64,000 bases of DNA, taken from positions 19,754 through 83,753 of IMG/VR virus record IMGVR_UViG_3300032272_000006. The stretch is one strand, 5' to 3'. This stretch comes from a virus. Taxonomy: Duplodnaviria > Caudoviricetes. Under the pieces are notes generated by a model, which had not been told where the DNA came from, searched no databases, and saw only the letters and a program-made list of their open reading frames with translations. Below, in pieces: positions 536-61,699 of the stretch. Positions within the stretch are counted from its first letter, which is position 1, and each line of letters starts with the position of its first letter. A program made the position numbers and the translations under genes.

Positions 536-554
536 CGTTTAAACGGAGTGCCCC

Positions 555-1037
555 ATGGCTATCACGGTAGGAACAGACACCAACCAGACCCTCGTTGAAG
601 CCGACCTTTACTGGTCAAATCGAGGCAACACCGACTGGGCAGCTCTCTCGGACGCAGATAAAGAAATCAACCTGCGCAAAGCCGCCGACTGGCTAGAACG
701 GAATTTCCGTTGGCGCGGGACGCGCAAGACGGCATCCCAGCGACTCGGGTGGCCGCGGGACCAGGCTTTCGACGAAGACAGTTTTGTCATTGGTGACACA
801 GCGGCTCCGCCCATCGTCAAAGAGGCCGAGGCAATCGTCGCTGATCTTTACCGTGCAGGCGTGAACGACCTCGAAGGCATTGTTACTGATACCGAGTCGG
901 CAGTCATCAAAGAAAAGGTTGACGTGATCGAAGTCGCTTATGACTCGACATCTCGCATCCGAGGCGCCGACGTGATCAGTCATGTCCACCTCATGCTTCG
1001 CGGTGTCGTTCTCGGCAATCAGTTGTTGAGGTCGTAA
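555..1037 (+). CDS. Head-tail adaptor (DnaT-like neck protein)
   Basis: EADLYWSNRG...LRKAADWLE...WRGTRKTASQRLGWPR pattern; first gene of neck cluster; GGAG RBS. Confidence 0.65.
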   Translation: MAITVGTDTNQTLVEADLYWSNRGNTDWAALSDADKEINLRKAADWLERNFRWRGTRKTASQRLGWPRDQAFDEDSFVIGDTAAPPIVKEAEAIVADLYRAGVNDLEGIVTDTESAVIKEKVDVIEVAYDSTSRIRGADVISHVHLMLRGVVLGNQLLRS

Positions 1038-1417
1038 TGTCTGCTTTCTACGACAACCTGCGAGACAATGTTGCCGGCCCTTTGATCACCAAGTTCGGGC
1101 GGGATGCAACGCTGCGGCAGCAAACCAACACCTACGTTCCGGCGACCGGTGTTGCCACCAACGTCAATGTTGACACCGCGGTGAAGATCGTTACTTTGCC
1201 CATGTCGAAGGCGAAAGACGTCTTTCGTGACGATCTCGTGGAATCGTTCGACCAATTTGTCATTATGTCGGCAGAGCAAACGGCAGCGGCTGCGATAGAG
1301 CCCGGTACCGATGATATCTTGGTGATCGGGTCGGAAATAAGTCGCATCGTAGCGCTGACCCCGTTAGAGCCCGACGGGACCAAGGTGATCTACAAGATCG
1401 GAATTGCGAGAGCTTAA
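1037..1417 (+). CDS. Head closure / head-tail joining protein
   Basis: Size and synteny; coupled by TAATG overlaps. Confidence 0.55.
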   Translation: MSAFYDNLRDNVAGPLITKFGRDATLRQQTNTYVPATGVATNVNVDTAVKIVTLPMSKAKDVFRDDLVESFDQFVIMSAEQTAAAAIEPGTDDILVIGSEISRIVALTPLEPDGTKVIYKIGIARA

Positions 1418-1821
1418 TGGCGGGAAAAAGCGCTACGGCGTTCAATATCGACCTAAAGAAATTCGGTGACGTGACCGAGCAGCAGGCCGGACAGATCTTC
1501 CGCAAGATTGCGCTTGATCTTGACCGTTCGGTTGTGCTTGACACGCCGGTCGATGAAGGCCGGGCGCGTGGCAACTGGTATCCCTCGATCAACAGCCCCT
1601 CGAGCGAAGTCAACGAAGACAGCAAAGGTGCGGCAGCATCTCTCGGCCGCCTCGGCGGTGTCGTCGGTGGGGCAAAGCTCGGTCAGGTAATCTGGATGAC
1701 CAACAACCTGCCCTATATCCTACCGCTCGAGAACGGGCACTCAGGACAGGCGCCTGACGGTATGGTGGAGGTCAACGTGCAAAGGGCCGCGGCAACATTC
1801 GGCGGGAGTATTGAGCGATGA
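1417..1821 (+). CDS. HK97 gp10-like tail completion protein
   Basis: TPVDEGRARGNW and NNLPYILPLENGHSGQAPDGMV motifs. Confidence 0.8.
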   Translation: MAGKSATAFNIDLKKFGDVTEQQAGQIFRKIALDLDRSVVLDTPVDEGRARGNWYPSINSPSSEVNEDSKGAAASLGRLGGVVGGAKLGQVIWMTNNLPYILPLENGHSGQAPDGMVEVNVQRAAATFGGSIER

Positions 1822-2237
1822 CTTACGAGGCACAGGACAACGCAATCAGGACTCGCTTCTCGACGCAGTACGCGCTCGGGACCAATCATCCCGTAGCATA
1901 TCCCAATGCAGAATTCTCGACGAAACCGACGGACGACGTCTGGCTTCGCTTCGTCATGCAGGACGCTGGCGCCAATCAAGTGTCGATGGGAGACCCGGGT
2001 AATAATTTCCATCGACATACCGGGTTACTTACCTTTATGATATTCACGCCTTTAAACCAAGGCGATGCTGAAGCGTTGCAGGTCGCGGATGAGGTTGCTG
2101 CTATCTTCCGGGGATGGCAGGATCCATCGTCGAGAGTTTTCTTCCGCCAGCCGCCTTTCGTTCGTCGCATTGGTGCAGATGGCAAATGGTACCAGGTAAA
2201 CTTGTTGTGCCCGTTTGAGCGCGACTCATTGTTCTAG
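1818..2237 (+). CDS. Tail terminator protein
   Basis: Synteny before tail tube; WLRF...HTGLLTFMIFTP...F pattern. Confidence 0.7.
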   Translation: MTYEAQDNAIRTRFSTQYALGTNHPVAYPNAEFSTKPTDDVWLRFVMQDAGANQVSMGDPGNNFHRHTGLLTFMIFTPLNQGDAEALQVADEVAAIFRGWQDPSSRVFFRQPPFVRRIGADGKWYQVNLLCPFERDSLF

Positions 2238-2261
2238 GCCTAGAACACAAGGAGAAAGAAA

Positions 2262-7674: not shown

Positions 7675-9521
7675 AGACAGCAACCGCTGGTCTCAATACT
7701 CATATCCAGCAAGAGGCAACGACCCTCGCGCAGTTCTGGAAAGTTCGTCGCACGGACGGCACACTGTTTGCCTTCACGTCGCACGATCAAGACCTGCTTA
7801 TTGACACAGGCGACGGAGACGGCGAACTCACCTACGAGGCGGAGACATCGTTTAAACGGTCCGCAATAGCTAACAACGACCTGCTCTCGGTGGACAATCT
7901 CGACGTTGAGGGACTCCTACGATCAGACAAGATTGGCGAGACCGAATTGCGGCGCGGCCTGTTCGACTTCGCTGAGGTTTGGGTCTTCATCGCGAATTAT
8001 GAGACCCTGTCGGACGGATTTGTGCGCATGAGGCGCGGCTGGTTTGGTGAGGTCACGATCACGCCGAACGGTGTATTCCAAACCGAATTGCGTGGCATGA
8101 CTCAGGTCTTGGCTCGCGTTCGTTCGCGCGTCTACAATGTAGAGTGCGAGTATGACTTGGGAGACACTGGCTGCGGTGTACCAATCAGTCCTGACGTACT
8201 ACCAACAGGCACCTCAGTTGCCGTCGGCACGACGTGGAAGGTTCCGCTTTCCCCACCCTTGGAAGAGTGCCGCGTTATTGGCATGAACTTCGAAGGCGCC
8301 AATGGTTCGACTTCGGGTGTTGGATACGACAATATTAGTGGTTCCGCTTTCGGGATCGGTCAGCCAGACACTCGCGTCGGCGGGCAGAACATCGACACAA
8401 GCCAAGCCCCGCGAGGCGCTGGGTCCTCCTCCTCTTTGTTCCTTGACGGCTCAAATGACTACCTCGAGTGGCTAACCAATCCCGCTTTCGATATTTCCGA
8501 CACCTCGGAAGAAGTCAATTTGCAATTCAGCTTCCGACCTAATGCCATCGGCGTCAATCACTGGATCTTTAGTGACTACACCAGCACATCTAACGGGCGC
8601 GTCTTCATCATGGGCGTAAGGTCGGCTGCCAACGTGTTCACGTTTGAACTTTACCAGAGTGACGGGGCTACCTTAGACTTCGCGATAGTCGGCACGACGG
8701 TCATTGCTGTAGGCACCGACTACCACGTTTCAGTCTCTCGCGACTCAGTAGGGGACTGGCGGCTGTTCGTTAATGGCGTCCAAGAAGGCGCAACCGCGAC
8801 GCCAACGAGCACCCCGCACCCTAACGAAAATGATCTCCGCATTGGCGCGATTTACTCAGGTGGCACCCTCTCAACGACCCACGGCTGGATCGACTGCGTA
8901 GAAATGCTGGTAGGCGCGGCTCGATGGACGGCCGGTTTCACGCCGCCCACTGACCTTTTCGTAGAACCCCAGACGGCGTTTGCTTATAACGAACTCACCG
9001 AGAACGACTTCATCGTCACGGTTGCAGGCACGACGGGCAATTGCTTAGAGATACCTGACGAGACAATTCCGAATACTCACGCCCAAGGCGGCGCAACACT
9101 GCAGGCCGTCGAGCCATGGTCGCGTCGAATTGAAGTGACCGCCGTTGGGGCGGACGCGCGTCGAGATTTCACCGTCACCGAATTGACTCCGAACAGCGGT
9201 GGCGTGATTGAGGGCAAGGACTTCTTCCCGGATGACTCGCTGAATGGAGGCGTGGTATTCTGGCTGACGGGCGACAACGCAGGCCGCGGGATGGAGGTCA
9301 AGGACTTCGTTGCGGATGATGGCATCACGATCACCCAGGACCTGAGCCTGTTCCTTCAGATGCCTTTCGACATTGCTATTGGAGACATCGCGACTGTCTA
9401 CCGCGGGTGTGATAAGTCCCGCGCGACGTGCCGCGACATCTTCGCGAATGCCAGTAGGTTCGGCGGGTTCCCAGACATTCCCGGGCAGCAGATCTTCTCC
9501 TATCCGAATGCTAAGTCATGA
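7671..9521 (+). CDS. Baseplate hub protein (DUF2163/BR0599, GTA g13-like) with inserted LamG-like domain
   Basis: N-terminal LAQFWKVRRTDGTLFAFTSHDQDL; CEYDLGDTGC; C-terminal GCDKSRATCRDIFANASRFGGFP; central LamG-like block. Confidence 0.85.
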   Translation: MKTATAGLNTHIQQEATTLAQFWKVRRTDGTLFAFTSHDQDLLIDTGDGDGELTYEAETSFKRSAIANNDLLSVDNLDVEGLLRSDKIGETELRRGLFDFAEVWVFIANYETLSDGFVRMRRGWFGEVTITPNGVFQTELRGMTQVLARVRSRVYNVECEYDLGDTGCGVPISPDVLPTGTSVAVGTTWKVPLSPPLEECRVIGMNFEGANGSTSGVGYDNISGSAFGIGQPDTRVGGQNIDTSQAPRGAGSSSSLFLDGSNDYLEWLTNPAFDISDTSEEVNLQFSFRPNAIGVNHWIFSDYTSTSNGRVFIMGVRSAANVFTFELYQSDGATLDFAIVGTTVIAVGTDYHVSVSRDSVGDWRLFVNGVQEGATATPTSTPHPNENDLRIGAIYSGGTLSTTHGWIDCVEMLVGAARWTAGFTPPTDLFVEPQTAFAYNELTENDFIVTVAGTTGNCLEIPDETIPNTHAQGGATLQAVEPWSRRIEVTAVGADARRDFTVTELTPNSGGVIEGKDFFPDDSLNGGVVFWLTGDNAGRGMEVKDFVADDGITITQDLSLFLQMPFDIAIGDIATVYRGCDKSRATCRDIFANASRFGGFPDIPGQQIFSYPNAKS

Positions 9522-9958: not shown

Positions 9959-12900
9959 ATGGCATCCCTTCTAATATCTGCAGCAATCAACATCGCCGTT
10001 GGGTTGCTCTTATCGTTTCTTTTTGCCCCTGAAGGGCAGGACGTTACTCAAGAGGGGCCGAAGCTAGAAGACCTCAATGTAACGTCTTCGGCCTACGGTA
10101 AGAATATCAATCTCGCCTTCGGGACGGTGCGTTTAAACGGAAACATCATCTGGTCGGACGGCATTGAAGAGGTGGTGACGAGCACGACGCAGGAACAAGG
10201 TGGTAAAGGCGGCGGTGGCGGCTCAGTTACGCAGACGACTTACTCTTACTTCGCGACGTTCGCACTCGCACTTGCCGAAGGTCAGGCCGACAAGCTTCTC
10301 CGAATCTGGGCCGATAATAAACTGATCTACGACGTGACCGGCACCTCGAGCGCTGCGTCTAAATTTGCGGTCAAGTTCTACGACGGTCGCGACGACCAAG
10401 CCATTGACCCGATAATCGCTGCCCATATTGATGGGCTCTACGGGGCAGGTTCAACACCTGCTTATAATGGAATCTGCTACCTACTTGCCGACCGCTGGTC
10501 GCTGGCTGACTTCGGCAATCGAATTCCAAACATCACAGCCGAGATCACATTTGAAGGTCAGGACACGCTACCATACCAAGGCCTAGTTGAATTGTCGGGC
10601 CAGGATGTTCCAGGTTCCGCCGCGGGTGGGTCGGCTGGCTACGGGATGATGCTCGACCCAGACACAAATTTCCTTTACTTCGTCAAGAATAATAACAGCA
10701 CGTCGGCGGGTGTTGCTGACGCCTTTTCCATGACTACGCTAAATTTGGTGCCGGGAGTATCATCGCTCGGCGATACCTCCATCACTGTTAACTTTAAAGA
10801 CGGTATTATCTACGGTCAGTCAGGCTCCGGTAATTTTGAAGCGCTCACTGCCAAGAACGTTTTCTCAGACACCGATCTCGGAACGAGTTCTTTCTCTTTT
10901 GGGAACGGTATATGGCCTGCGGTGATCAACGCCGAGTTCCCAGGAACGCCTGTCCCGTCAGCCACCTGGCTTATTGTATCGCGTAAGTCGATCCTTGACG
11001 ACGGAGCATTCTCGTGGATTCGCATGGACGGTCCAGGCACGTTCACGCTTGTAGGCTCTGACACGACGCCCGACGGTCGCGGCCTCAACGGAGGACCTGC
11101 GATTGCTAATTGGTTCACCCAAGAAGCCTACGTCATTATGGAGAACAACACCAACGTTGAGATATACCGCTTCCGCGTTGTCCCGGAATTTGGTCTAACT
11201 GGAATCACAACAGGGATAGAACAGACGAAAGTAGTAGACGCGACAAAGGCAAGCCTTGGCTTTGCCGCTGCCGCAATTGAAGGTTGGATTCTGCTTCCTA
11301 ACGAGAACGCAATCATCCTCGGGACGGGCCTCCCGCAGTCGGGTTCTATGGTCAAGTTCGACCTCGACGATTGGAGCGTAATAACCTCGACGCAGGCGAA
11401 CGGTACCGCAGCAGCCAACAACTTCGCGACGAATGGGTATTGGGGTACTTGCCGAAATACATCGACCACAAGTGGCGGGCAGTACTATATCTTCGATACC
11501 GACACGCTGGAAATTATCAGGACTTACGAGGCGAGCATAGCTTTCCCGGGCGAGACGGAGTCAGCTCAGCGATCTTGCGTATGGGATCCGCGTTTCGACG
11601 CGATCACATTTAGTCGAGTCTATGCTAGCAGCCCTTCAAAACCTAATCGCGTCGTCCGCGTCTTCCTCGGTCGCGCGTCGGGTGCTGGTGTTCCATTGGA
11701 AAACGTTGTTACCAGTATTGCGGACAAGGCTGGCTTGGTCGCTGCAGACATCGACGTTACCGACCTGATTGGTGACACGGTTCGAGGCTACGTTGTGTCT
11801 CGCAACGGCTCCTACCGGTCAGCTCTTGAACCTCTCCAGAAAGCATATCTATTCGACGGGGTTGAGTCGGATTGGAAGATCAAGTTCGTTAAACGAGGAG
11901 GCGCAGCCGCCCTTACGATTGCGGAAGACGACATTGGTCGACTAGGTAATGAGGAACGAATTGAAGAAAAACGAATCCAGGAAGTAGAGCTTCCGGAACG
12001 AGTTATTATTGGCTACTCAGACGCTGACCGCGACTATGAACCCGCCACCGCGATGGACAAGCGCGTTGCCAATCCCAACCCGACGCAGTTCAGCCGATCC
12101 GAGTTGAAGATTGACTTCCCGCTCGTGTTCACACCCACCGAAGCGAAGAAACTCGCGTCGTCGGCACTGTTCACGACATGGGGCGAGCGTCTCACGCTTG
12201 ACTCGTCCTTGCCGTGGCGATATCTTCGTCTCGATCCCACCGACATTGCCGACATGGTATTCCGCGGAGAGACGAGGCAGATCCGCATGGGTGAGATAGA
12301 GGTGGGCGCTGACCTATCTCTCGACTTCACCGCAGTACAGGAGGACGTCTCGACGTATGTCTCGACGGTAGTCGGGGCTGCTGGGGAAGGTTTCGTGCCG
12401 CAGGTGCCGTTTGGAGGCTTGCCGTCGAAATGGATCCCGATGAACCTGCCACTGCTGCTCGCATCTGAGGCAACGATTGGCACCGCCAATCGCGTCTACT
12501 ATGCAGCTTCCGGCTATGAAGATAGCTGGCCGGGTGTCTCCATTTACCAATCAATCGACCTAGGCAACACCTATCAGCAGGCAGCAGCTTTCACCGTCGA
12601 GGCGGCGTGGGGCGTTATTTCAACAGCCCCTCCGGATGTCTGGTCGGCGAATGGAACTGCTTGGGAACGGCTAAGTGGCGGGGCTGGTGCTTACACTTGG
12701 GACGATGTTAACACCATCGACGTTAAGCCCTTGAATGAAGGCGCTCGGTTCGCCACGTCGACCGACACCGAGGTGCTAAACGGCGCGAATGCTGCCGCGA
12801 TCATCAAGTCAGACGGAACGGTCGAGATCATCCAGTTTGTGACCGTCACGACGGTTGATGCCGGGACAATCCGGTTGTCCCGCCTACTGCGTGGGCGTCG

Positions 12901-13996
12901 AGGCACTGAGGACTACGCGCGTGGGCACGTCGCCGGGTCAACTATCGTCTTACTTGAATCCGGACGCATCGGTTCTTGGCGCAATCCTTTGACCCGAATT
13001 AACATATCCGACCTATACAAGCCGGTGACAGGAGCAACGCTTCTTGAGAACACGAGTCAGTCAACCTTCATCGCTAACGGCGAGGATCTTCGACCTTACT
13101 CGGTTGTGAATATCGACTCGAGCCGCGCAGGTGGTGACTTGACAGTGACGTGGGAACGGCGGACAAGGTTCAACGGCGAGTTGCTCGACGGTACGGGCAC
13201 GGCACCTCTCAACGAAGAGGAAGAGCTATACGACATTGACTACTTCCTGCCAGGTGAGACGACGCCCTTCTTAAGTCGCACCGACTTGACCTCGAAGACG
13301 GACACGTTGACCGCGGCCGAGTTCACGGCTCTCGTTCCGGTAGGCACCGACCAGCTCTTTTTCCCTAACTGGAACTTTGAGCGGCAGGTCACCAACGGCA
13401 CCTTCCCAGATGGGTTCGACACGGTTGCGGCGAATGATGGCAACTGGCGCGTCGAGTCGGGTGCTGTTGGGTCTATCGCAGGCCCGCCTGGAGGCGGTGG
13501 CTCGAACTATGCCGTGCTCACGACCGACAACACAAGCAGCGACTTTGCGAGGTTCGACTCTGAAAGGAAGTTGTCTTTCATCGACGATTTCTTCCAGACG
13601 GAAACTTTCATGGACGCCGCGCCGACAATTGATCTTGACGTATGGACGAGCAATCCTACCGTGTCTGATCACGGGACGCAGGTCGACTTGCGAATCTATG
13701 ACAAAGACGATACACTCATCCAGACAATTTCGTCAGGTCGTATCATAGGGACGCCTGGAACCTGGATCAACACGATAATTGCTTCGACGGCGGTCGTCTC
13801 AGGTGCTCGGACATTCGATATTCGAGTAACTGGTGACAACAACAGCGGCTTTTCTTTCGATGACTGCACAGGCGCGGTGGATCAGATCTTGATCAATTTA
13901 AATGGTATCGGAGTGGTCATTCCCGCAATCGAAGCGAAAATCTACCAGAAAAGCGCTCAGGTTTCGCAGGGCAAAGCCACAAGGCAAAGGGTTTAA
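9959..13996 (+). CDS. Tail tip / central fibre (GTA g15-like, host-specificity) protein
   Basis: SSAYGKNINLAFGTVRLNGNIIW; DFGNRIPNITAE; LSRLLRGRRGTE; WERRTR motifs. Confidence 0.9.
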   Translation: MASLLISAAINIAVGLLLSFLFAPEGQDVTQEGPKLEDLNVTSSAYGKNINLAFGTVRLNGNIIWSDGIEEVVTSTTQEQGGKGGGGGSVTQTTYSYFATFALALAEGQADKLLRIWADNKLIYDVTGTSSAASKFAVKFYDGRDDQAIDPIIAAHIDGLYGAGSTPAYNGICYLLADRWSLADFGNRIPNITAEITFEGQDTLPYQGLVELSGQDVPGSAAGGSAGYGMMLDPDTNFLYFVKNNNSTSAGVADAFSMTTLNLVPGVSSLGDTSITVNFKDGIIYGQSGSGNFEALTAKNVFSDTDLGTSSFSFGNGIWPAVINAEFPGTPVPSATWLIVSRKSILDDGAFSWIRMDGPGTFTLVGSDTTPDGRGLNGGPAIANWFTQEAYVIMENNTNVEIYRFRVVPEFGLTGITTGIEQTKVVDATKASLGFAAAAIEGWILLPNENAIILGTGLPQSGSMVKFDLDDWSVITSTQANGTAAANNFATNGYWGTCRNTSTTSGGQYYIFDTDTLEIIRTYEASIAFPGETESAQRSCVWDPRFDAITFSRVYASSPSKPNRVVRVFLGRASGAGVPLENVVTSIADKAGLVAADIDVTDLIGDTVRGYVVSRNGSYRSALEPLQKAYLFDGVESDWKIKFVKRGGAAALTIAEDDIGRLGNEERIEEKRIQEVELPERVIIGYSDADRDYEPATAMDKRVANPNPTQFSRSELKIDFPLVFTPTEAKKLASSALFTTWGERLTLDSSLPWRYLRLDPTDIADMVFRGETRQIRMGEIEVGADLSLDFTAVQEDVSTYVSTVVGAAGEGFVPQVPFGGLPSKWIPMNLPLLLASEATIGTANRVYYAASGYEDSWPGVSIYQSIDLGNTYQQAAAFTVEAAWGVISTAPPDVWSANGTAWERLSGGAGAYTWDDVNTIDVKPLNEGARFATSTDTEVLNGANAAAIIKSDGTVEIIQFVTVTTVDAGTIRLSRLLRGRRGTEDYARGHVAGSTIVLLESGRIGSWRNPLTRINISDLYKPVTGATLLENTSQSTFIANGEDLRPYSVVNIDSSRAGGDLTVTWERRTRFNGELLDGTGTAPLNEEEELYDIDYFLPGETTPFLSRTDLTSKTDTLTAAEFTALVPVGTDQLFFPNWNFERQVTNGTFPDGFDTVAANDGNWRVESGAVGSIAGPPGGGGSNYAVLTTDNTSSDFARFDSERKLSFIDDFFQTETFMDAAPTIDLDVWTSNPTVSDHGTQVDLRIYDKDDTLIQTISSGRIIGTPGTWINTIIASTAVVSGARTFDIRVTGDNNSGFSFDDCTGAVDQILINLNGIGVVIPAIEAKIYQKSAQVSQGKATRQRV

Positions 13997-13999
13997 ACG

Positions 14000-19424: not shown

Positions 19425-19484
19425 TTTTGTAATTCTTTCTCGGGCGTTTAAACGAGGTTTCATCATACACCTCGAAATAAGGTG

Positions 19485-19513
19485 TTGACAGAGAAATATA
19501 AGGCACTTATAAT
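19485..19513 (+). promoter_or_regulatory. Consensus sigma70 promoter
   Basis: TTGACA-17 bp-TATAAT, divergent from the XRE gene. Confidence 0.9.
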
Positions 19514-19762: not shown

Positions 19763-19794
19763 TAACGGGCGGCGCGTTTAAACGTCGCCCGTTA
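19763..19794 (+). terminator. Hairpin with GTTTAAAC in its loop
   Basis: TAACGGGCGGC/GTCGCCCGTTA stem. Confidence 0.6.
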
Positions 19795-20633: not shown

Positions 20634-20662
20634 ATCGTAGGGGCTGCGTTTAAACGCAGACC

Positions 20663-21172: not shown

Positions 21173-21201
21173 TCACTGAGGGGGCGTTTAAACGCGCCCC
21201 C

Positions 21202-22317: not shown

Positions 22318-22341
22318 CGGGCGTCACTTCGGTGGCGCCCG
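22318..22341. terminator. Bidirectional terminator between converging units
   Basis: CGGGCGTCAC-TTCG-GTGGCGCCCG (cUUCGg tetraloop), flanked by AAA and TTT. Confidence 0.75.
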
Positions 22342-22342
22342 T

Positions 22343-24229
22343 TTAAACGTTCGTGTCCACAAGCACCATAGAGTCCCCAAAAGTAACGGTGTCTTTGTTG
22401 CGCTCGAAGTACCCTCCATAGACGAGGTTGGTATCGGCGCCAAAAGTGTCGAAGTTAATTCCTGACCCAAGAGCCGCGTTGATGTTCTCCCCGGCTGTGA
22501 AGTCATTCCGTATCACCTCAACGTCACACCAACCCGTTCCCGAAAGCAGGAATACTCCTGCAGGCGGTACATGCGACAAGTCCCAAGCCGCGCTTGTCTG
22601 GGTCAGGTATACTGCGTCTATTACCTCAAACGTCCAACCCCCATCCCACGTTGCAAATTCTCTTGCATGACCTACCCAAGCTCCCGTCGGAGTGTCGCCT
22701 ACGACGTAAGGCAGTGAAGTTATGGGTGTCTGTGGTGGGTCGTTTAGGATGCCATCATGCGCCTCAGTAGACGCCTGTCCGCTGTATCGTGCGAAGCCGG
22801 ATCCCGCTGTGATTGAACCAAGCCCGGAAGGGCCTCTAACTATGAAGGCGGTATCCGTCGTCGCCTTGTTGCCCTCAACGTCGCAGCTTTGCAGCATCCC
22901 GACGTTGAAAGCCGCCCATATTGCGCCGTCCGACATGCCCGAGAAATTAACCGTGTTCCTATGCAGCTTTGCATCCCGCAGCGCGGCCCAAGTGTAGGCG
23001 GCGTCTCGATCACAAGGCGCCGCGAACTCGACGTGATTATCTTCGCTTATGACCCTGGTTGAGTACTGAACGTTGAAAGCCTCTCGCTTCGGGGAGCCCG
23101 CTTTAACGGCAAAAGAACATGATCCACTATTTCTTGAAACGTTCACATTCTTCGCGTGGGTTATGTTGACGAAACCTCCCGCGCCTTGGTTGAACACGTC
23201 GAAGAAAACGTTGTCTGTTGCGGTGTATCCTACCTTGGTATTTGCGCCGTTGGGGACCTCAGTAGACGTCCACCCCTGCCCATGTATCGTGTTGCCGGAC
23301 AGCTTAATATTCTCACCCGCGAGTTCGAGCCAGTTAGGTGTCAACTCGCCGCTCTTGATCGTCCCGTCTTTGATTTTAAGGTCACGGCATAGGATTGAAA
23401 GGGTACGATACCGAGCCGCATCGAAGAAGCAATTCTCAAGTGATATTCGCTGATTTATATGACCTGCGGCCATCCATGACTCGTCAAGCCACAACTCAAC
23501 ACTCATCCTACCGCAACCGTAAATCTGAACTGATTTAAAGTCCATTTCTGAGAACGTTCCCACGGTAGCGATAGCGTTGCCTCCCACGAGCGAACTCAAG
23601 TTGCTAGGATCAGGGCTTCCCGTCTCGCGGACAACGACGTTCTCAAAAACGACACCCACCACTGGAACGTCTAAGGTGTTGTTGTTCAATTGAATTGCGG
23701 TGAAATTCTGTTCCAACAGCAAGTCACGGAAAACAAGTCGACCGTAATTCGTGGAGTTACCGAAGTCGTCCTCGGCAAATATCGCGCGGCCCGCAGCCTT
23801 TGAGAAATTGACGTCTTCAATGTGGAAACCGTCTAAGGTCACGCCCGAGGATTTTAAATTAAGGAGGGACGTCTGATCGCTAGCAGAAACGCTGTCTGTG
23901 CCTTGTCCTGCGAGGTCCCAAGTGCCCTGAAATTCTCCACCCTTCATCGTGAAGTTGCTACCTTGAACTCGTATGCCCGCTGAAGCTAATTGTGTACTGC
24001 CGAACTTTATTATTGTCTTTTTGTCAAGTAGAAGAGTTGTGTTGTCAGGAATGACTACAGCTGCCTCACCGGCTGATAGCTGCGATCCTATAAGGTATGT
24101 TCCAGGAGGGAAGTATACAGGACGACCTAAAGCCTCATTGACGGCGAGCTGGATCGCAGCGCTATCGTCCGTTACCCCGTTACCCGTCGCGCCTGATTGT
24201 TTTACGGAAGTTATGAACGCGGAAGCCAC
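22343..24229 (-). CDS. Pectate-lyase-like right-handed beta-helix protein (putative polysaccharide depolymerase)
   Basis: SVKQSGATGNGVTDDSAAIQLAV...VYFPPGTYLI signature followed by beta-helix repeats. Confidence 0.8.
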   Translation of the reverse strand: MASAFITSVKQSGATGNGVTDDSAAIQLAVNEALGRPVYFPPGTYLIGSQLSAGEAAVVIPDNTTLLLDKKTIIKFGSTQLASAGIRVQGSNFTMKGGEFQGTWDLAGQGTDSVSASDQTSLLNLKSSGVTLDGFHIEDVNFSKAAGRAIFAEDDFGNSTNYGRLVFRDLLLEQNFTAIQLNNNTLDVPVVGVVFENVVVRETGSPDPSNLSSLVGGNAIATVGTFSEMDFKSVQIYGCGRMSVELWLDESWMAAGHINQRISLENCFFDAARYRTLSILCRDLKIKDGTIKSGELTPNWLELAGENIKLSGNTIHGQGWTSTEVPNGANTKVGYTATDNVFFDVFNQGAGGFVNITHAKNVNVSRNSGSCSFAVKAGSPKREAFNVQYSTRVISEDNHVEFAAPCDRDAAYTWAALRDAKLHRNTVNFSGMSDGAIWAAFNVGMLQSCDVEGNKATTDTAFIVRGPSGLGSITAGSGFARYSGQASTEAHDGILNDPPQTPITSLPYVVGDTPTGAWVGHAREFATWDGGWTFEVIDAVYLTQTSAAWDLSHVPPAGVFLLSGTGWCDVEVIRNDFTAGENINAALGSGINFDTFGADTNLVYGGYFERNKDTVTFGDSMVLVDTNV

Positions 24230-35619: not shown

Positions 35620-35710
35620 GTGATGGACGGCCCGGGCCTTCGTGCCCGGGTCATTCATTAACGCCTCACCGTTTAAACACCTGTGATGGTTCAACCAGGA
35701 GACAAAAACC

Positions 35711-38320: not shown

Positions 38321-38324
38321 TCCC

Positions 38325-38993: not shown

Positions 38994-39230
38994 ATGTTTG
39001 GTGCAGTCAAAGAAAAGATTGAGGAGCGCAAGCGAGTGCTGGCGCATCTCATGACTTCACTCGAGAAGTGGAGAGCGTCTGACCGTTTAAACGCGGAGCC
39101 TGGCACGCCTCGAAGTCACCTTCTGACAGACGAGGAAAAGGAACTCGCCCACGCCTACGATCTGCTCCAGAACTTAATTGGGCAGGTCCAGAAAGAGAAG
39201 CCCGGCGGGAACGTAGACATTTCCTGCTGA
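38994..39230 (+). CDS. Hypothetical protein
   Basis: GGAGG RBS. Confidence 0.6.
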   Translation: MFGAVKEKIEERKRVLAHLMTSLEKWRASDRLNAEPGTPRSHLLTDEEKELAHAYDLLQNLIGQVQKEKPGGNVDISC

Positions 39231-40443: not shown

Positions 40444-41644
40444 GCAAGAAGGCGCCCTGCAGGCCGTCGAGCATTGGTTCCGTAATAAGACGTCTCCCTC
40501 GTTCTACCTTGCGGGTTATGCCGGGACGGGCAAGACGACTCTCGCGCGTCACTTCGCTGAAAATTGCTCAGGCGTCGTCAAGTTCGCAGCGTTCACGGGC
40601 AAGGCCGCTTCCGTCTTGAGGAAGAAAGGTTGCCCCGGCGCAACGACGATCCACTCGCTGATCTATCGACCAGTCGGTCAGACGAACGAGAAGCAGCGAC
40701 GGTCGTTGGAAATCCTTATCGAGGTCGAGGAGAACAAAGACAAGGCCGACCGTGACCCGATGGTCGAGACGTGGCGCAAAGAACTTGCCGACCTCACCGC
40801 ACGTTCGCGCGCCATGTTCGAACTGCGCAAGGAAGGCGAGACCGAGATAATGGAAGCCGACTTGGTCATCATCGACGAATGCTCGACCGTCGATGTTAAG
40901 ATGGGCGCTGACCTCGAAGGATTTGGCGTCCCGATCTTGTACCTCGGCGATCCTGGGCAGCTCCCGCCCGTCAATGGCAAAGGCCTGCTCGCGAAGCGTC
41001 GTCCCGACTATACCCTCGAGGAGATTCATCGCCAGGCGAAGGACTCGCCCATCATCTGGCTTGCCCACGAGATCAGGCAAGGCCGGAAGACGGCTTTTGG
41101 CTCGTTCGGAGACGGGCAAGTTGAAATTCTTAAGAAGCGCGAGTGGGATTGGCAGCGCGCAATCGAATCCGATCAAATGATCTGCGGCATGAACAAGACG
41201 AGACGTCGTTTAAACGCAGGCGCCCGGGAGCGCCTTGGCTTCGATAAGCTCTACCCGCTGGTCGACGACAAACTGATCTGCCTCAACAACGACCACGACG
41301 AAGGCCTACTCAACGGCGTCACTTGCTCGATGCTTGCCGACTCGATCAAGAAAGGAAACCTGCTCGAGGCGCGTATCGACTACGAAGGCATGAGAATGCT
41401 CCACTACATCGACCCTGGGCACTTCGAGGAGAACTACCAGAAGCGTTTATCCTACCCAAAATACGACACCGTCCAGCACTTCGATTATGGCTACGCTATC
41501 ACGGGGCACAAGTCGCAGGGGTCCCAGTGGCCGAGCATCGTCGTCTGTGACGATAAGATGAGGGCGGACGATGTTGTTCATAGACGGCAATGGCTCTATA
41601 CTGTCGTCACAAGGGCCGAGGAAGGCCTAACCGTCTATGCCTGA
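40427..41644 (+). CDS. Dda/RecD-like SF1B helicase
   Basis: GYAGTGKTT, IIDECS, GDPGQLPPV, YAITGHKSQGSQW. Confidence 0.9.
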   Translation: MQWTAEQEGALQAVEHWFRNKTSPSFYLAGYAGTGKTTLARHFAENCSGVVKFAAFTGKAASVLRKKGCPGATTIHSLIYRPVGQTNEKQRRSLEILIEVEENKDKADRDPMVETWRKELADLTARSRAMFELRKEGETEIMEADLVIIDECSTVDVKMGADLEGFGVPILYLGDPGQLPPVNGKGLLAKRRPDYTLEEIHRQAKDSPIIWLAHEIRQGRKTAFGSFGDGQVEILKKREWDWQRAIESDQMICGMNKTRRRLNAGARERLGFDKLYPLVDDKLICLNNDHDEGLLNGVTCSMLADSIKKGNLLEARIDYEGMRMLHYIDPGHFEENYQKRLSYPKYDTVQHFDYGYAITGHKSQGSQWPSIVVCDDKMRADDVVHRRQWLYTVVTRAEEGLTVYA

Positions 41645-48114: not shown

Positions 48115-48498
48115 ATGCGCGCCAATGTTTACTTCATCGACCTCACCGACGAGATGGTAGCCGCGATTAACGCACCGGGCCCAGACGCAACGAGTGGTTG
48201 GGCGTCGCCTGAGGGCAAGGCCTACATGAGCGCGAAGGCCGGCAAGATCGACGACACCAACAAGCACCTGTTTAAACACACCGCGGTGGTCGATGTTGAC
48301 CACGCCGAGGCGGCTTGGGTCATGCTTCAGAACCTCGACGCTCCTTGGGACGCGAACGAGGACTACTCGAAACTCGTCCAGGTCGTGTCCAAGAACAATC
48401 GCTCAATGGACGTTGGTGACGTGATCGTCTGGGAAGACGGACGCACCGAGATGGTCGCCTCTTGCGGCTTTGAACCCTCAACCTTTGTGGAGGCGTAA
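48115..48498 (+). CDS. Early protein with YodL-like motif
   Basis: RSMDVGDVIV...VASCGF C-terminal motif. Confidence 0.5.
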   Translation: MRANVYFIDLTDEMVAAINAPGPDATSGWASPEGKAYMSAKAGKIDDTNKHLFKHTAVVDVDHAEAAWVMLQNLDAPWDANEDYSKLVQVVSKNNRSMDVGDVIVWEDGRTEMVASCGFEPSTFVEA

Positions 48499-49901: not shown

Positions 49902-50070
49902 GGTCATCCTACTCGACAACGGCGACATCTTGACCGACGAGATGACGCATAAGTGCGGGACGCCTTTTACCGACAAGTTCGTCTTCTGGATGGAGCACAT
50001 GGGTCGTCTGACGACGGACGAGGCTATCTCCTACCATCGCCAGGCGCTGCGTTTAAACGTTTCGGCTTGA
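49879..50070 (+). CDS. Hypothetical protein
   Basis: GGAGG RBS. Confidence 0.55.
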   Translation: MAKQTPSRVILLDNGDILTDEMTHKCGTPFTDKFVFWMEHMGRLTTDEAISYHRQALRLNVSA

Positions 50071-50096
50071 CACTTTCTTAATAACTCGCTTATATG
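50067..50096 (+). promoter_or_regulatory. Sigma70 promoter overlapping TTGA-N7-TTAA
   Basis: TTGACA-18 bp-TATATG followed by the conserved leader. Confidence 0.7.
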
Positions 50097-50853: not shown

Positions 50854-51242
50854 CCGATGCTGAATTCCAGCACGTTCATAACCGGCTCGCGCCGATGGTC
50901 TGGGCCCTCGCCTTCGACCTGTGCCGTGAGAACCCGGGACCGGCCCGTTTAAACGCGGTCCTGAACTCACTGCTGACTCTCACCTGCGGGTGGGTCGTCG
51001 CCGTGACGCCTGAGAATGTGGGCATTGAATCCGAGCACTACGACATACTGGTCGGCAAGTTCAAAGAGAACCTCGCCGCGATGCTCAGTGAGCAGGAGAC
51101 AATCCGCGCCGACGTTTCCCAGATGGGAAATTACCAGGGCCGGCAATTGCTCCTGCGCCACCAGAACGAGGCATTGGCGAACGCTGTCCAGCAGCTTGTC
51201 GTCATGCTGTCAACGCCTGGGCCTCAGGACGGTGTCCAGTAA
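50805..51242 (+). CDS. Hypothetical protein
   Basis: AAGGAG RBS. Confidence 0.6.
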   Translation: METPTPANEAPQPEEMTDAEFQHVHNRLAPMVWALAFDLCRENPGPARLNAVLNSLLTLTCGWVVAVTPENVGIESEHYDILVGKFKENLAAMLSEQETIRADVSQMGNYQGRQLLLRHQNEALANAVQQLVVMLSTPGPQDGVQ

Positions 51243-55608: not shown

Positions 55609-56165
55609 TGTTCGATCTCGAGACGCTCGGCGTTGGGCCGCACTCGGTCGTCGTATCAATCGGCGCCGCGCGCTTCAACGAGGTAGACGAACCTCGCGAC
55701 AAGATGGCATTGCTGCTCGACCTCGAAGAGCAAGACGGCCTCGGTCGCAAGATCGACCTCGGGACGGTCACTTGGTGGCTGAAACAAGACCAGAAGGCGC
55801 GGGACTGGAACTTCGACACGAACAATCGCTACCCGGTCGACGTTGCCCTGCGCGCCTTCACGACATTCTGCCAAGGCGCCGAATTGTTCTGGTGCCGCGG
55901 GACGACCTTCGACGTGGTCCTGCTCGAGGACCTGTTTAAACAGTACGGAATGAACGTGCCCTGGAAGTTCAATCAGGTGCGCGACGTCCGGTCGCTCGAT
56001 GAACTCGACGACGGCGGCGACTCGTTGGTCGGCGTCGTTGCCCATAAGCCCTTGGATGACTGCCTCATGCAGATCGCTCAGGTTCAACGTGTCTTTGGGC
56101 AGCCGCCCAAGCCAGACCGACTGGTTCCTCGCCTGTTCGAGGAATCCGTCCAACCAGGAGACTGA
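55593..56165 (+). CDS. DEDD 3'-5' exoribonuclease (Rv2179c-like)
   Basis: MFDLETLG, FDVVLL, VPWKFNQVRDVRS, HKPLDDC. Confidence 0.85.
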   Translation: MSKWVMFDLETLGVGPHSVVVSIGAARFNEVDEPRDKMALLLDLEEQDGLGRKIDLGTVTWWLKQDQKARDWNFDTNNRYPVDVALRAFTTFCQGAELFWCRGTTFDVVLLEDLFKQYGMNVPWKFNQVRDVRSLDELDDGGDSLVGVVAHKPLDDCLMQIAQVQRVFGQPPKPDRLVPRLFEESVQPGD

Positions 56166-56389: not shown

Positions 56390-57024
56390 CCGAGCAGTTC
56401 GATTGGTGGTACTCGAACAACGAGGAGTCCTACCAGGGCCCATGCGGGTCGCGCGAAGAAGCGATCTCGACGGGCTTCCACGAGTATGGCGGCGAGGGCT
56501 GGCTTTACATCGTCGAGGCGACCCAGGCCGTCCCGGGCACGGACATCTTCGACTTCGACCGCGTGCTCGAGGACTTCGAGGAACGCAACGAGGAATGCTG
56601 GGGCGAGGATGGTCAACCTATTTCCGGTATCGAGTTCAAGGACAAGCGGCAGCTCGAGAACATGCTGTCCTATACCTTGCGCAACTACCTTGAGCGCAAT
56701 GGCGCCTTGCGGTCCTGGTCCTTCGGTCAGACGCGCAATGCGGAAACGATCAACATGGAGGCCGGCGGCTGGATCGAGTCGTTCTCCTTCCAGTCGATCA
56801 TGATCTCCGCATTCCGGTACGCCCTCGGTCGGAAGACATACGTTGTGTCCGAGACGGTCGGTGTCCTGATTGATCAGTGGGACCGGCTCGGTCACGCCCA
56901 AGACATCATCCTGAAAGAAATCCAGGACGCAATCGACGCCGGGACCTCGGGCATGGAAATGGACGTGGTGCAGTGGATGAAAATCCAGGCGCACGCTGAG
57001 GAGGCGAAGAATGCTAAGTCGTAG
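56386..57024 (+). CDS. Hypothetical acidic protein
   Basis: GAGG RBS; ATGA coupling. Confidence 0.6.
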   Translation: MTEQFDWWYSNNEESYQGPCGSREEAISTGFHEYGGEGWLYIVEATQAVPGTDIFDFDRVLEDFEERNEECWGEDGQPISGIEFKDKRQLENMLSYTLRNYLERNGALRSWSFGQTRNAETINMEAGGWIESFSFQSIMISAFRYALGRKTYVVSETVGVLIDQWDRLGHAQDIILKEIQDAIDAGTSGMEMDVVQWMKIQAHAEEAKNAKS

Positions 57025-58448: not shown

Positions 58449-58881
58449 AGCATCAGCATGGACGACTCTTCGCTCGCACCTCGTGGGCATGGACGGGCGC
58501 GTTCACATCCAACGGCTCGAGGACAAACTCACTGGCGGCATCCCGGACACGAATGTCTGCTGGAGTCGTGACACGCGACCTGGTATCGAATTCTGGTTGG
58601 AAGGAAAGTACGTTAAGGAATTGCCGAAGCGGCAGACGACCAAGGTCAAGGTTGACCTTCGCGCCGACCAGGCCCTATGGCTCGAGACACGTCAACGAGC
58701 GGGCGGCAAAGCCTTCGTCTGGATCCGCGTTGCGGATTACGGATGGCTCCTGTTCGACTCGCGCTTTCGCTCGCTTCAAGACGGCATCGTGCTGTCTGAC
58801 TTCATCAACGAACCTGTCTACCCGACGTGCAAGGCGATGGTGCAGGCACTGAAGGTGTTCTTAATCTCGGAGCCTATTTAA
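58441..58881 (+). CDS. PD-(D/E)xK nuclease (Holliday junction resolvase / VRR-NUC-like)
   Basis: RLED...GGIPDTNVC...FWLEGK...QALW. Confidence 0.75.
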   Translation: MSEASAWTTLRSHLVGMDGRVHIQRLEDKLTGGIPDTNVCWSRDTRPGIEFWLEGKYVKELPKRQTTKVKVDLRADQALWLETRQRAGGKAFVWIRVADYGWLLFDSRFRSLQDGIVLSDFINEPVYPTCKAMVQALKVFLISEPI

Positions 58882-58893
58882 TAGTTTCTTAAC
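58878..58893. promoter_or_regulatory. Isolated perfect CtrA-type box
   Basis: TTAA-TAGTTTC-TTAAC, with more TTAA half-sites at 58861 and 58895. Confidence 0.5.
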
Positions 58894-58937
58894 CTTAACA
58901 TGAAAGGATGCTGCCTTTGTAGATTTGGAGTAGTAGA

Positions 58938-60225: not shown

Positions 60226-60281
60226 ACACGGACGACGCCATACGATAAAGTTAGCGGATCAATGAAGCAACGGAGACGATC

Positions 60282-61520
60282 ATGACCAAGACCGCTTACC
60301 TCTTCGACGACACGCAGAAGAACCCAATCAAGGCGTGGGTTCACGGTGTGCCGGTTGCCCATAACGCAATCGAACAGGCCCGGGCAACGGCGTCGATGCC
60401 TTTCATCTATAAGCACGTCGCGCTGATGCCAGACGTCCACCTCGGTTATGGCGCGACGGTCGGCTCCGTGATCCCAACCCAAGGCGCGATCATCCCAGCA
60501 GCCGTCGGCGTGGACATTGGCTGCGGCATGATGGCTGTCCGGACGAACATCACCGCGAACGAATTGCCGGACAGCTTGGTTGGCATGCGGACGGCAATCG
60601 AGGCCGCAATCCCGCATGGGCGAACGAACAACGGCATGCCAGGCGACCGCGGCGCGTGGGGCAATGCTCCCGCGCACGTCGAGGCGTCGTTTGAGTCCCT
60701 GAGTCGTGGCATGCAGACGATCATGGAGAAGCATCCTAAGATCGTGCGCCTCGGTTCGGCCCTTCACCGAAGCCTGAACCATATGGGCACGCTCGGTACC
60801 GGCAATCATTTTGTCGAGGTGTGCCTTGACGAGTCGGACGAGGTGTGGATCATGCTGCACTCAGGCTCCCGCGGCATCGGTAACGCAATCGGCTCCTACT
60901 TCATCAACCTGGCGAAGGAGGACATGCGGAAGTGGTTCATCAACCTGCCCGAGGCCGACCTCGCCTACCTGCCCGAGGGCACTGAGCACTTCGACGACTA
61001 CCGCACCGCGGTATCCTGGGCCCAGGCGTTCGCGCTCATGAACCGGGAGATCATGATGAAGGCCGCAACGAAAGCGGTCGCCTCGATCATGAAGCGAGAC
61101 ATTCGCACGAATGAGGTAGCGGTCAATTGCCATCATAACTACATCGACAAGGAGAACCACTTCGGACAGAACGTCTGGGTCACGCGCAAGGGAGCCGTCC
61201 GCGCTCGCAAAGGCGATCTCGGAATCATCCCAGGATCCATGGGCGCCCGGTCCTTCATCGTCGAAGGCCTCGGTGAGGCACAGTCATTCCATTCTTGTTC
61301 GCACGGTGCCGGACGTGTTATGTCCCGCACCCAGGCCCACAAGACGTTCTCGGTCGAGCAGCACATTGCAGCCACCGAGGGCGTCGAGTGCAAGAAGGAC
61401 GACTCGGTCATTGACGAGACGCCCGCGGCCTACAAAGACATCGACGCGGTCATGGCAGCACAGTCAGACCTCGTCAAGGTAAAGCACACGTTGAAGCAAG
61501 TCGTCTGCGTGAAGGGATAG
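60282..61520 (+). CDS. rtcB: RNA ligase RtcB
   Basis: MPDVH, VGVDIGCG, GTLGTGNHFVE, HSGSRG, CHHNY, SHGAGR, DETPAAYKDI. Confidence 0.96.
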   Translation: MTKTAYLFDDTQKNPIKAWVHGVPVAHNAIEQARATASMPFIYKHVALMPDVHLGYGATVGSVIPTQGAIIPAAVGVDIGCGMMAVRTNITANELPDSLVGMRTAIEAAIPHGRTNNGMPGDRGAWGNAPAHVEASFESLSRGMQTIMEKHPKIVRLGSALHRSLNHMGTLGTGNHFVEVCLDESDEVWIMLHSGSRGIGNAIGSYFINLAKEDMRKWFINLPEADLAYLPEGTEHFDDYRTAVSWAQAFALMNREIMMKAATKAVASIMKRDIRTNEVAVNCHHNYIDKENHFGQNVWVTRKGAVRARKGDLGIIPGSMGARSFIVEGLGEAQSFHSCSHGAGRVMSRTQAHKTFSVEQHIAATEGVECKKDDSVIDETPAAYKDIDAVMAAQSDLVKVKHTLKQVVCVKG

Positions 61521-61526
61521 AATTGT

Positions 61527-61612
61527 GGGAAGGGCCGGACGTTGGATTCGGCGCGGCAACAAGGAATACTAGTTGACCGGTTGCTGGGGAGGTTCGACTC
61601 CTCCCCTTCCCA
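61527..61612 (+). ncRNA. tRNA-like RNA with canonical acceptor, D and T arms but an aberrant anticodon arm
   Basis: GGGAAGG/CCTTCCC acceptor; D stem with TGG loop; GGAGG-TTCGACT-CCTCC T arm; no 7-nt anticodon loop; no encoded CCA. Confidence 0.65.
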
Positions 61613-61623
61613 GGACGTTTAAA

Positions 61624-61699
61624 CAGGGCGTAGCTCAGTCGGTAGAGTGCCGGGTTTGGAACCTGGAGGCCGTAGGTTCGAGTCCTACCGCCCTGACCA
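61624..61699 (+). tRNA. tRNA-Pro(TGG)
   Basis: Full cloverleaf: CAGGGCG/CGCCCTG; CCGGG-TT TGG AA-CCTGG; GTAGG-TTCGAGT-CCTAC; ends ACCA. Confidence 0.95.

Follow-up and report, generated by a model that had tools for sequence, protein, structure and literature searches.

Introduction

Several described systems place one short DNA word many times along a genome. Mycobacteriophages of Cluster A carry stoperators, numerous sites lying within and between genes, one of them at an early promoter, that serve a phage protein (gp71 in L5, gp69 in Bxb1). Cyanobacterial genomes hold, beside alternate iterated palindromes, HIP1 (highly iterated palindrome, GCGATCGC), an exact 8-bp palindrome present in large excess and accommodated at synonymous coding positions, while phage-plasmids such as N15 have scattered palindromes, parS or sopC-like sites, onto which a phage-encoded protein is loaded. 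T5-like phages and certain Pseudomonas phages (tf and the phiKMV group) display a short nick motif at intervals, for which no regulatory role is known. Here we analyze an array that shares some of these features, that of the palindrome GTTTAAAC in a Caudoviricetes virus, IMG/VR record IMGVR_UViG_3300032272_000006 (83,753 bp, 56.6% G+C). A stretch of 64,000 nucleotides, bases 19754-83753 of this record, had been annotated in an earlier note from the sequence alone; we call this stretch the window and give positions in its numbering. We propose, with a probability of about 0.55, that the GTTTAAAC array constitutes a set of selected docking sites for an SprT-like zinc-ribbon protein that the phage itself encodes. 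The broader statement, that the word is some selected site to which a protein binds or at which a protein acts, we hold to be very probable.

Results

Abundance and placement of the word

An exact-match count recovered, position for position, the 19 copies of GTTTAAAC that the earlier note had seen by eye in the window and had judged to be far too many for chance. Dinucleotide shuffling bears out this judgment, since 100 shuffles gave a mean of 0.38 and a maximum of 3 copies. The whole genome of 83,753 bp contains 25 copies, on average ~1 per 3.3 kb, where 0.7 are expected from base composition, and the word ranks first by count among all 8-mers in window and genome alike. It is a perfect palindrome with symmetric Y..R flanks; we obtained the same count as before for the extended form YGTTTAAACR, 18 of the 19 window copies, and of the pooled half-sites 80-85% have C and 13-18% have T immediately before the word. 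Genome-wide, 25 of 32 TTTAAA hexamers are flanked by G..C, and each one-mismatch variant of GTTTAAAC occurs 0-3 times.

Relative to the 115 genes called in the genome by a simple codon-score method, 13 copies lie wholly within genes, two supply a TAA stop and ten are intergenic, yet intergenic DNA makes up 8% of the genome. The 13 in-gene copies all stand in the two frames that avoid an internal TAA, and for the ten of them previously recognized as coding in the window our gene calls agree with the frames x-F-K-x and R-L-N. When synonymous codons were shuffled within each gene, 1000 shuffles yielded a mean of 0.47 and a maximum of 3 in-gene copies against the 13 present. Under this null, which was applied to every 8-mer, GTTTAAAC is the top outlier of all in-gene 8-mers (z 18), and no other TTTAAA-containing 8-mer is enriched in genes save those overlapping GTTTAAAC. 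The earlier claim of selection on the motif at the DNA level is thus upheld by a codon-aware comparison, and the over-representation does not extend to TTTAAA words at large.

The codons tell the same. R-L-N tripeptides are spelled CGT-TTA-AAC (CGTTTAAAC) in six of seven cases, though TTA accounts for only 3.7% of leucine codons (CGT for 16% of arginine codons), in agreement with the claim that the word draws on codons that the genome tends to avoid. Similarly, seven of the 11 compatible x-F-K-x positions carry the word, and the dipeptide F-K itself is not enriched (50 seen, 52 expected). Because both proportions are this high, we conclude that the genome uses the word almost everywhere the protein sequence permits.

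Relatives, hosts and spacing

The phage is of siphovirus type, with tape-measure and tail proteins, a family-A DNA polymerase, clamp, clamp loader, primase, several helicases, RtcB and SSB. Its relatives form the Nanhaivirus group, with Dinoroseobacter phages R5C and R26L and Pseudanabaena phage Pan1 (polymerase identity 54-58%, broad synteny). Beside the 25 copies in the 83.8 kb of this phage, GTTTAAAC occurs 16 times in Pan1 (72.0 kb), 17 times in R5C (77.9 kb), 20 times in R26L (79.5 kb) and 11 times in an uncultured fragment, G001, of 37.2 kb, so that the expected conservation in relatives holds at the level of the array. In Pan1 and R26L each TTTAAA hexamer of the genome sits in the word. 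Remoter polymerase relatives have one copy (Sulfitobacter phage M39) or none (Microcystis phage Me-ZS1).

In 61 genomes of the Rhodobacteraceae family (G095-G155), the family expected for the host of R5C and R26L, we counted 0-56 copies per 2.6-5.6 Mb, and in all of those with more than ~5 copies GTTTAAAC stands at or below the control palindrome CAAATTTG. Usually the word is 2-60 times rarer in these 61 genomes than CAAATTTG, which has equal composition (0 against 55, or 1 against 62, for example), a deficit that the internal TAA stop explains in part. Five other bacterial genomes, which carry SprT-like genes, contain 0-7 copies. The density in the phage clade, one per 3.3-4.6 kb, is at least ~15 times that of the densest bacterial genome (~1 per 54 kb), and phages carrying this same word have been reported from both an alphaproteobacterium and a cyanobacterium. 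The array belongs to the phage lineage and is not shared by the hosts.

Gaps between copies are more even than random placement would give in the five clade genomes that were analyzed in full, with coefficients of variation of 0.66, 0.51, 0.61, 0.36 and 0.43 (P 0.024, 0.003, 0.03, <5e-5 and 0.005, respectively) and a Fisher's combined P of 2e-8 for genomes that have few sites in common and are nevertheless related; even spacing is significant also in G007 and G020. Sites were mapped between the clade genomes by tblastx. One in phoH is common to this phage, Pan1 and R5C, with F-K retained as CTTCAAGC in R26L, and one in a nuclease gene is common to Pan1, R5C, R26L and G001 and is absent from this phage. 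Turnover runs both ways, relatives spelling F-K as TTC-AAG where the word sits here, and the reverse. By eye, two intergenic sites are in place in all five genomes, one upstream of the queC leader and one upstream of the SprT-like gene. Conservation at synonymous positions, which the earlier note had expected to find in homologous genes, is therefore borne out for a few sites such as that in phoH, and not for the many that turn over, among them 27737 and 32573, where the relatives have F-K as GTTCAAGG. As even spacing goes together with only partial positional conservation, selection seems to act on copy number and coverage more than on most single positions.

Association of word and SprT-like gene across phages

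We followed the association of word and gene in both directions. From gene to word, 50 IMG/VR records were chosen only by homology to the SprT-like protein: 19 of them hold at least 3 copies of GTTTAAAC (up to 49), a number that the control CAAATTTG never attains, and among the others nine hold 11-46 copies of CTTTAAAG, one holds 15 of ATTTAAAT and four hold 7-11 of GTGTACAC, mostly as CGTGTACACG. From word to gene, all viral contigs were searched for two CGTTTAAACG within 4-34 bp, which returned 42 stretches on 40 contigs where, by our estimate, one or two would arise by chance. Ten of the 15 contigs in this set with at least 7 copies encode an SprT-like protein, the base rate of the gene being 164 in 50,697 cultured phage records; the remaining five comprise three small fragments, a tandem array (G071) and a 17.9-kb element (G054). 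The tandem array (IMGVR_UViG_3300012352_000396) consists of at least 10 head-to-tail units of 29 bp with the word, at 38239-38507 and 15-51, by the end of the contig with its direct terminal repeats. Dense arrays in other phages are mostly intragenic.

When 20 array genomes were screened by tblastn for the proteins of this phage, the SprT-like protein alone proved widespread (19 of 20), the next best being found in four. The XRE-like helix-turn-helix (HTH) protein, previously put forward as a reader to be tested, has to cede first place for this reason: only the SprT-like gene travels with arrays across unrelated phages.

The word also lies close to the gene itself. It stands at most 100 bp upstream of the SprT-like gene in six of the 13 lineages with a mean spacing of 3-11 kb, where ~2% would be expected (binomial tail ~2e-6). 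Coliphage ep3 has it between the TATAAT -10 box and the ribosome site of the gene, Pseudomonas phage Persinger 18 nt ahead of the ATG, and all five clade genomes 43-425 bp upstream of the gene and 2-10 bp upstream of a -35 box. The simplest reading of a word at this promoter would be autoregulation, and regulation by another protein would fit equally. In Persinger (L242), one of four copies (16174-16181) abuts the start codon of a ParB-like gene, which hints that ParB-like and SprT-like genes are co-regulated in P2-like temperate phages; ep3 and Persinger do encode a ParB domain.

The SprT-like protein

The open reading frame (ORF) of the SprT-like protein was first translated from 50094 (P0001), and both its promoter and the 197-aa form found in databases place the start at 50133. 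The protein matches phrog_6361 (E 1e-52), and 1117 homologues were found, about half of those listed carrying a precomputed PF10263 assignment. In an alignment of 14 homologues H97, E98, H101 and H110 are invariant, as is the C-terminal CxxC...CPxxxC ribbon. The AlphaFold model (predicted local distance difference test score, pLDDT, 82.5) has a zincin fold over residues 16-149, followed by a Cys4 ribbon, and its fold matches include abylysin (Z 7.7), SPRTN (7.2), Wss1 (6.3) and, within the range Z 6.3-7.7, selecase. Foldseek against the PDB gave no match below E 0.001, with SPRTN on top at E 0.02. The ribbon sequence CPDPSCDG (window 50640-50700) resembles CPTPGCDG of the CCHHC zinc fingers of MyT1, a weak profile match, the sole one against the PDB (E 0.07), which we regard as a curiosity; MyT1 is a sequence-specific DNA binder.

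In four loci (L036, L037, L051 and L087, from G013, G014/G026 and G049) the HExxH motif is destroyed and reads HQxxR, QQxxH, QQxxY or AQxxC, at word counts of 15-44. Judged by these residues, the proteins would be natural pseudo-proteases. Since HExxH is lost in lineages with dense arrays, the link between protein and word does not appear to need proteolysis.

Word types cluster on a maximum-likelihood tree of 57 SprT-like proteins. There, GTTTAAAC is widespread and deep, CTTTAAAG belongs mainly to one clade with ATTTAAAT nested inside it, and GTGTACAC has at least two origins, one of them in G007, otherwise a member of this phage's clade. Residues in and next to the ribbon vary along with the word. 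Arg168 (P0001 numbering; in K-Q-x-T-R, within a basic stretch that precedes the ribbon) is found in all proteins whose word begins with G, and the CTTTAAAG/ATTTAAAT group has Ala, Ser, Tyr or Asn instead. At position 189, next after a conserved Lys of the ribbon helix, most GTTTAAAC lineages have Trp and the others His. Such covariation of residues and word is what direct read-out would predict.

Positions and surroundings in the window

The positions of all 19 window copies and of the genes discussed are collected in Table 1.

Table 1. Copies of GTTTAAAC in the window, with the candidate reader genes
Feature	Position	Strand	Context
Copy	537..544		Between stop of 546-aa virion gene (ends 535) and GGAG ribosome site of next gene (starts 555)
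Copy	7850..7857		In tail gene 7671-9521, S-F-K-R (TCG TTT AAA CGG)
Copy	10131..10138		In 1345-aa tail protein gene, R-L-N (CGT TTA AAC)
Copy	13991..13998		Gives TAA stop of gene 9959-13996; ends 2 nt ahead of ATG 14000; sole window copy without Y..R flanks
Copy	19446..19453		Divergent control region; 22 bp from HTH gene start (minus); 32 bp upstream of perfect TTGACA-17-TATAAT promoter 19485-19513
Copy	19776..19783		Apex of terminator-like hairpin 19763-19794; 8 bp upstream of TTAA-N7-TTAA box 19792
Copy	20648..20655		Centre of 16-bp palindrome CTGCGTTTAAACGCAG; 7 bp upstream of TTAA-N7-TTCA box (promoter at 20663)
Copy	21186..21193		Apex of terminator-like hairpin 21177-21204; 8 bp upstream of TTAA-N7-TTAA box 21202
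Copy	22341..22348		Gives TAA stop (minus strand) of tail-spike-like gene 22343-24229
Copy	27737..27744		In helicase gene 26907-28649, A-F-K-H; Pan1 and R5C retain F-K as GTTCAAGG
Copy	32573..32580		In helicase gene 32115-33587, A-F-K-R; relatives show GTTCAAGG or GTTCAAAG
Copy	35671..35678		Between terminator-like hairpin and queC leader; same place in all five clade genomes by eye
Copy	39085..39092		In small ORF 38994-39230, R-L-N
Copy	41208..41215		In RecD-like helicase gene 40427-41644, R-L-N; relatives have GCATCACG
Copy	48270..48277		In ORF 48115-48498, L-F-K-H
Copy	50051..50058		8 bp upstream of -35 box of SprT-like gene promoter
Copy	50947..50954		In ORF 50805-51242, R-L-N
Copy	55934..55941		In exonuclease-like gene 55593-56165, L-F-K-Q
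Copy	61617..61624		13-nt spacer between weak tRNA-like element (61528-61610) and tRNA-Pro; last C is tRNA base 1
HTH (XRE-like) protein, 63 aa	19233..19424	minus	
Putative SprT-like promoter, sigma-70 type TTGACA-17-TTATAT	50067..50095	plus	Followed by shared leader CATCGAAACAACGAA and GGAG site; predicted from sequence
SprT-like zinc-ribbon protein, 197 aa	50133..50726	plus	HELVH and His110, CxxC...CPxxxC ribbon

Copies adjoin promoters at 19485, 19792, 20663, 21202 and 50067. Those at 19776, 20648 and 21186 end 7-8 bp upstream of TTAA-N7-TTAA/TTCA boxes, behind which come a TACTAT element and the leader CATCGAAACAACGAA, and the hairpins that bear copies 19776 and 21186 are GC-rich. TTAA-N7-TTAA boxes number five where 0.13 are expected (19792-19806, 21202-21216, 21606-21620, 21928-21942 and 58878-58892); four of the five fall within the small-gene region 19.8-21.9 kb, in the place of a -35 box upstream of TACTAT, and two of this same promoter set, 21606 and 21928, have no word alongside. 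The boxes look like CtrA sites and suggest an alphaproteobacterial host with cell-cycle-linked early promoters. A second near-palindrome that is conserved, TATAACTCGCTTATA (complement TATAAGCGAGTTATA), at 50073-50095 overlaps the spacer and -10 region of the SprT-like promoter; it recurs at other clade promoters (Pan1 ~56465-56485, R26L ~21420-21470, R5C ~5330-5350 and ~25260-25290) and may be a separate operator.

The queC leader beside copy 35671 (35679-35710) is conserved in Pan1, R5C, R26L and G001 as CCTGTGRTGG...ACCAGGARAGRAAAACCA, with a possible hairpin or pseudoknot over the ribosome site; it has no Rfam match above threshold and may be an undescribed preQ-type control element. As to the two tRNA elements reported to flank the last copy, tRNA-Pro (61624-61699) is clear. 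The second, 13 nt upstream of it, is a weak tRNA-like element with a long variable arm, an acceptor GGGAAGG/CCTTCCC and the T-arm GGTTCGACTCC; ARAGORN did not call it, and the tRNA-Sec model gave 20.9 bits, under the Rfam threshold. Directly after the tRNA genes (61715-62584) follows a 289-aa protein with an I-TevI-type DNA-binding domain, which is probably a homing endonuclease insertion, because among close relatives only G001 has a match, a weak one.

Certain 6-bp palindromes, of which 15-25 copies each would be expected, are missing genome-wide (CGATCG, CGTACG, CACGTG, TGTACA, TACGTA, ATGCAT, ATCGAT and ACATGT, 0 copies) or depleted (TGGCCA 1, TCTAGA 1, ACGCGT 2, CAGCTG 4). The pattern suggests that restriction sites are strongly avoided, even though the phage has 7-deazaguanine genes.

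Discussion

With these data in mind, YGTTTAAACR would be a DNA-level signal kept by selection along the whole chromosome and placed where it costs least, that is, in synonymous F-K and R-L-N codons, in stops, in terminator loops and in spacers upstream of promoter boxes. Each copy would be a docking site for a symmetric, probably dimeric, DNA-binding protein encoded by the phage, and the SprT-like zinc-ribbon protein is the most likely reader. The copy in front of the -35 box of its own gene suggests autoregulation; three more abut early promoters, and the remaining copies would load the protein at regular intervals along the genome. Once bound, it might control transcription genome-wide, or it might guard or mark the phage DNA. 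The conserved activity would be DNA binding and not proteolysis, the protease site having been lost in several dense-array lineages. The protein-binding system that the earlier note had proposed thereby stands firmly in its first part, maintenance at the DNA level, for which shuffles and relatives both speak, while the binding itself is probable on the strength of the sequence comparisons. More tentatively, and with more doubt than belief on our side, one may extend this to an uncharacterised family derived from SprT zincins in phages, prophages and plasmids, whose members would be sequence-specific readers of lineage-specific 8-10-bp palindromes (GTTTAAAC, CTTTAAAG, ATTTAAAT, GTGTACAC). They might form a self-marking or DNA-tethered guard system that, for example, blocks or removes host DNA-tracking proteins, with protein and word co-evolving and the protease dispensable in some lineages.

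A number of observations weigh against the SprT-like protein as reader. Four of the SprT-like-selected records examined have no array; genomes that encode the protein without a clear one are G002, G009, G033/G034, G004 and G158, the last two being clade relatives. Arthrobacter phage Tweety19 (Cluster AZ), which has the gene, shows no xTTTAAAx array and only GC-rich palindromes, perhaps owing to codon usage. Conversely, G054 (L169; 17,948 bp, inverted terminal repeats, 35% G+C) holds 25 copies and no detectable SprT-like homologue. Its copies are all followed by GG, 23 are preceded by C (CGTTTAAACGG), and they are fairly evenly spaced (coefficient of variation 0.63); either G054 has a different reader or part of the element is missing. 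Of the polymerase-selected contigs, 39 are 35 kb or longer; six of the eight that have the gene, and none of the 31 that lack it, hold 6 copies or more (Fisher's exact P 9e-6), a table confounded by ancestry, as the eight carriers are this phage's own clade. The tblastn screen could overlook small, fast-evolving HTH proteins that travel with the array, the covariation of residues and word rests on perhaps two to four independent switches, and the spacing of dense arrays in other lineages is mostly not significantly even. As for the protein itself, it has no Pfam hit at E<=0.01, and its fold matches all lie below Z 8. Because there are carriers of the gene without an array, and in G054 an array without the gene, the array is an accessory, evolvable trait.

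Among the alternatives, the best placed, unlikely though we consider it, is that the words are sites for another phage protein, be it the 63-aa HTH protein or an unrecognised small regulator, and that the SprT-like gene is simply one of its targets. A palindrome would fit an HTH protein acting as a dimer. Pan1, R5C and R26L all have the HTH gene (58-60% identity), in this phage a word lies near the start of that gene, and a word in the SprT-like promoter would be explained equally well. In Pan1, R5C and R26L, however, no word lies near the HTH gene. Moreover, no other protein of this phage than the SprT-like one is common to unrelated array genomes, and it is the SprT-like tree that the word type tracks and the SprT-like ribbon residues with which it covaries. 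What we say here and below on genes not found covers ~70 of the larger ORFs, scanned with Pfam or PHROGs; in these, the 63-aa gene is the sole HTH gene, and there is neither an integrase nor a CI-type or immunity repressor.

We regard it as improbable that the words are targets at which a sequence-specific nuclease cuts or nicks the DNA, thereby providing ends or nicks at regular distances for use in recombination-dependent replication, packaging or ejection. An even spacing of 3-5 kb would suit a process in need of regular sites, the phage encodes RecD-like and UvrD-like helicases as well as exonucleases, and GTTTAAAC is a classical type II restriction target, that of PmeI. Yet the ORFs scanned yielded neither a restriction-type nor a nicking endonuclease, known nick motifs are asymmetric, and 25 double-strand cuts would fragment the genome.

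Two further explanations are each very improbable. The first is a HIP-like motif that owes its excess to biased repair, by a methyltransferase and an endonuclease of the very-short-patch type, and not to selection for binding, an origin that has been proposed for cyanobacterial HIP1. Conversion drive of this kind would indeed fill nearly all codon-compatible positions, as seen here, and the host of Pan1 is a cyanobacterium. Against this, neither a methyltransferase nor a Vsr-like gene was found in the ORFs scanned, drive predicts random and not even spacing, CGATCG, the HIP1 core, is absent from this genome, and the word occurs in phages reported from hosts of different phyla. A HIP of host origin, one form of the HIP-like option in the earlier note, was rejected for the rarity of the word in the 61 Rhodobacteraceae-family genomes and the five other genomes with SprT-like genes. 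The second, of similarly slight probability, is that the host machinery reads the words as ordinary transcription signals, such as UP-like elements or terminator loops, with no dedicated reader. In its favor, 12 of the 25 copies are intergenic or on a stop codon, and several are located at hairpin apices or precede a -35 or TTAA-N7-TTAA box by 2-10 bp; however, 13 copies are deep in genes and unrelated to gene ends, the dense arrays of other phages are for the most part intragenic too, neither an UP element nor a loop needs an exact palindrome of 8-10 bp, and two of the five TTAA-N7-TTAA boxes do without an adjoining word.

Least credible of all is a role of the word in the 7-deazaguanine DNA-modification system (DpdA), as its loading or target signal. 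Although the phage encodes the complete set (FolE, QueD, a radical-SAM QueE-like protein, QueC, QueF and a DpdA-like transglycosylase) and a word is positionally conserved just upstream of queC, array genomes outside the clade lack homologues of these genes, and Me-ZS1, which has an annotated TGT-type transglycosylase gene beside polA, is without the word. As a general cause of arrays the 7-deazaguanine link was rejected, homologues being confined to the clade members G005 and G007 among the 20 genomes screened.

If the words are indeed docking sites of the SprT-like protein, a family known in hundreds of cultured phages solely under the labels 'SprT-like protease' or 'transcription elongation protein' would gain a DNA target and a testable role, and lytic phages of unrelated hosts would be seen to fit their coding sequences to a binding code that spans the genome. 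Even spacing together with turnover suggests that the function requires the entire chromosome to be covered and not particular loci, unlike classical operators. To this picture the present phage contributes the evenness of the spacing, the turnover of sites, switches of word inside a single clade and the loss of the catalytic site, as well as members that can be cultured, namely R5C and R26L (Dinoroseobacter shibae), Pan1 (Pseudanabaena), ep3 (E. coli) and Persinger (Pseudomonas aeruginosa). On the practical side, PmeI sites are dense in such genomes, and the word offers a simple metagenome marker for this class of phages.

Our literature search found no publication on the GTTTAAAC palindrome of phages or on a pairing of SprT-like protein and palindrome, in line with the earlier note, whose author did not recognise the element as described for this phage type. 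The papers on Pan1, R26L and Cluster AZ do not mention the motif; the Arthrobacter Cluster AZ preprint names its homologue a conserved DNA-binding SprT-like protease and mentions no site.

Compared with the nick motifs, which are asymmetric, strand-specific and mapped to physical nicks, the present word is a symmetric palindrome. The half-sites GTTT/AAAC resemble the outer parts of parS, but there are far more sites here than in parS systems, they occupy synonymous positions throughout genes, and neither a ParB domain nor a ParA gene was found in the ORFs scanned, which reduces the parS-like option raised before to an analogy. HIP1 is a feature of host chromosomes linked to orphan methyltransferases, whereas the present word is phage-specific and has an AT-rich core; an enrichment of the HIP type is not seen in the 61 Rhodobacteraceae-family genomes, the host of this phage itself not being identified. 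Stoperator arrays are the closest functional analogue, and the earlier comparison with them is apt as far as many copies, one of them at an early promoter, are concerned. It does not extend to their defining features: stoperators are asymmetric 13-bp sites oriented with transcription, which an HTH immunity repressor of a temperate phage uses in lysogeny, whereas here we find a perfect palindrome of 8-10 bp at even spacing, no integrase or repressor in the ORFs scanned, and a candidate reader that combines a zincin fold with a zinc ribbon. In this combination the candidate resembles SPRTN, Wss1 and SprT (PF10263; PDB 6mdx, 5xbn; Z 6.3-7.2), which likewise join an HExxH zincin core to a zinc module in contact with DNA. 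While SPRTN binds DNA structure and removes DNA-protein crosslinks, the phage protein would be tied to a specific palindrome, and its catalytic residues are lost in three lineages with dense arrays.

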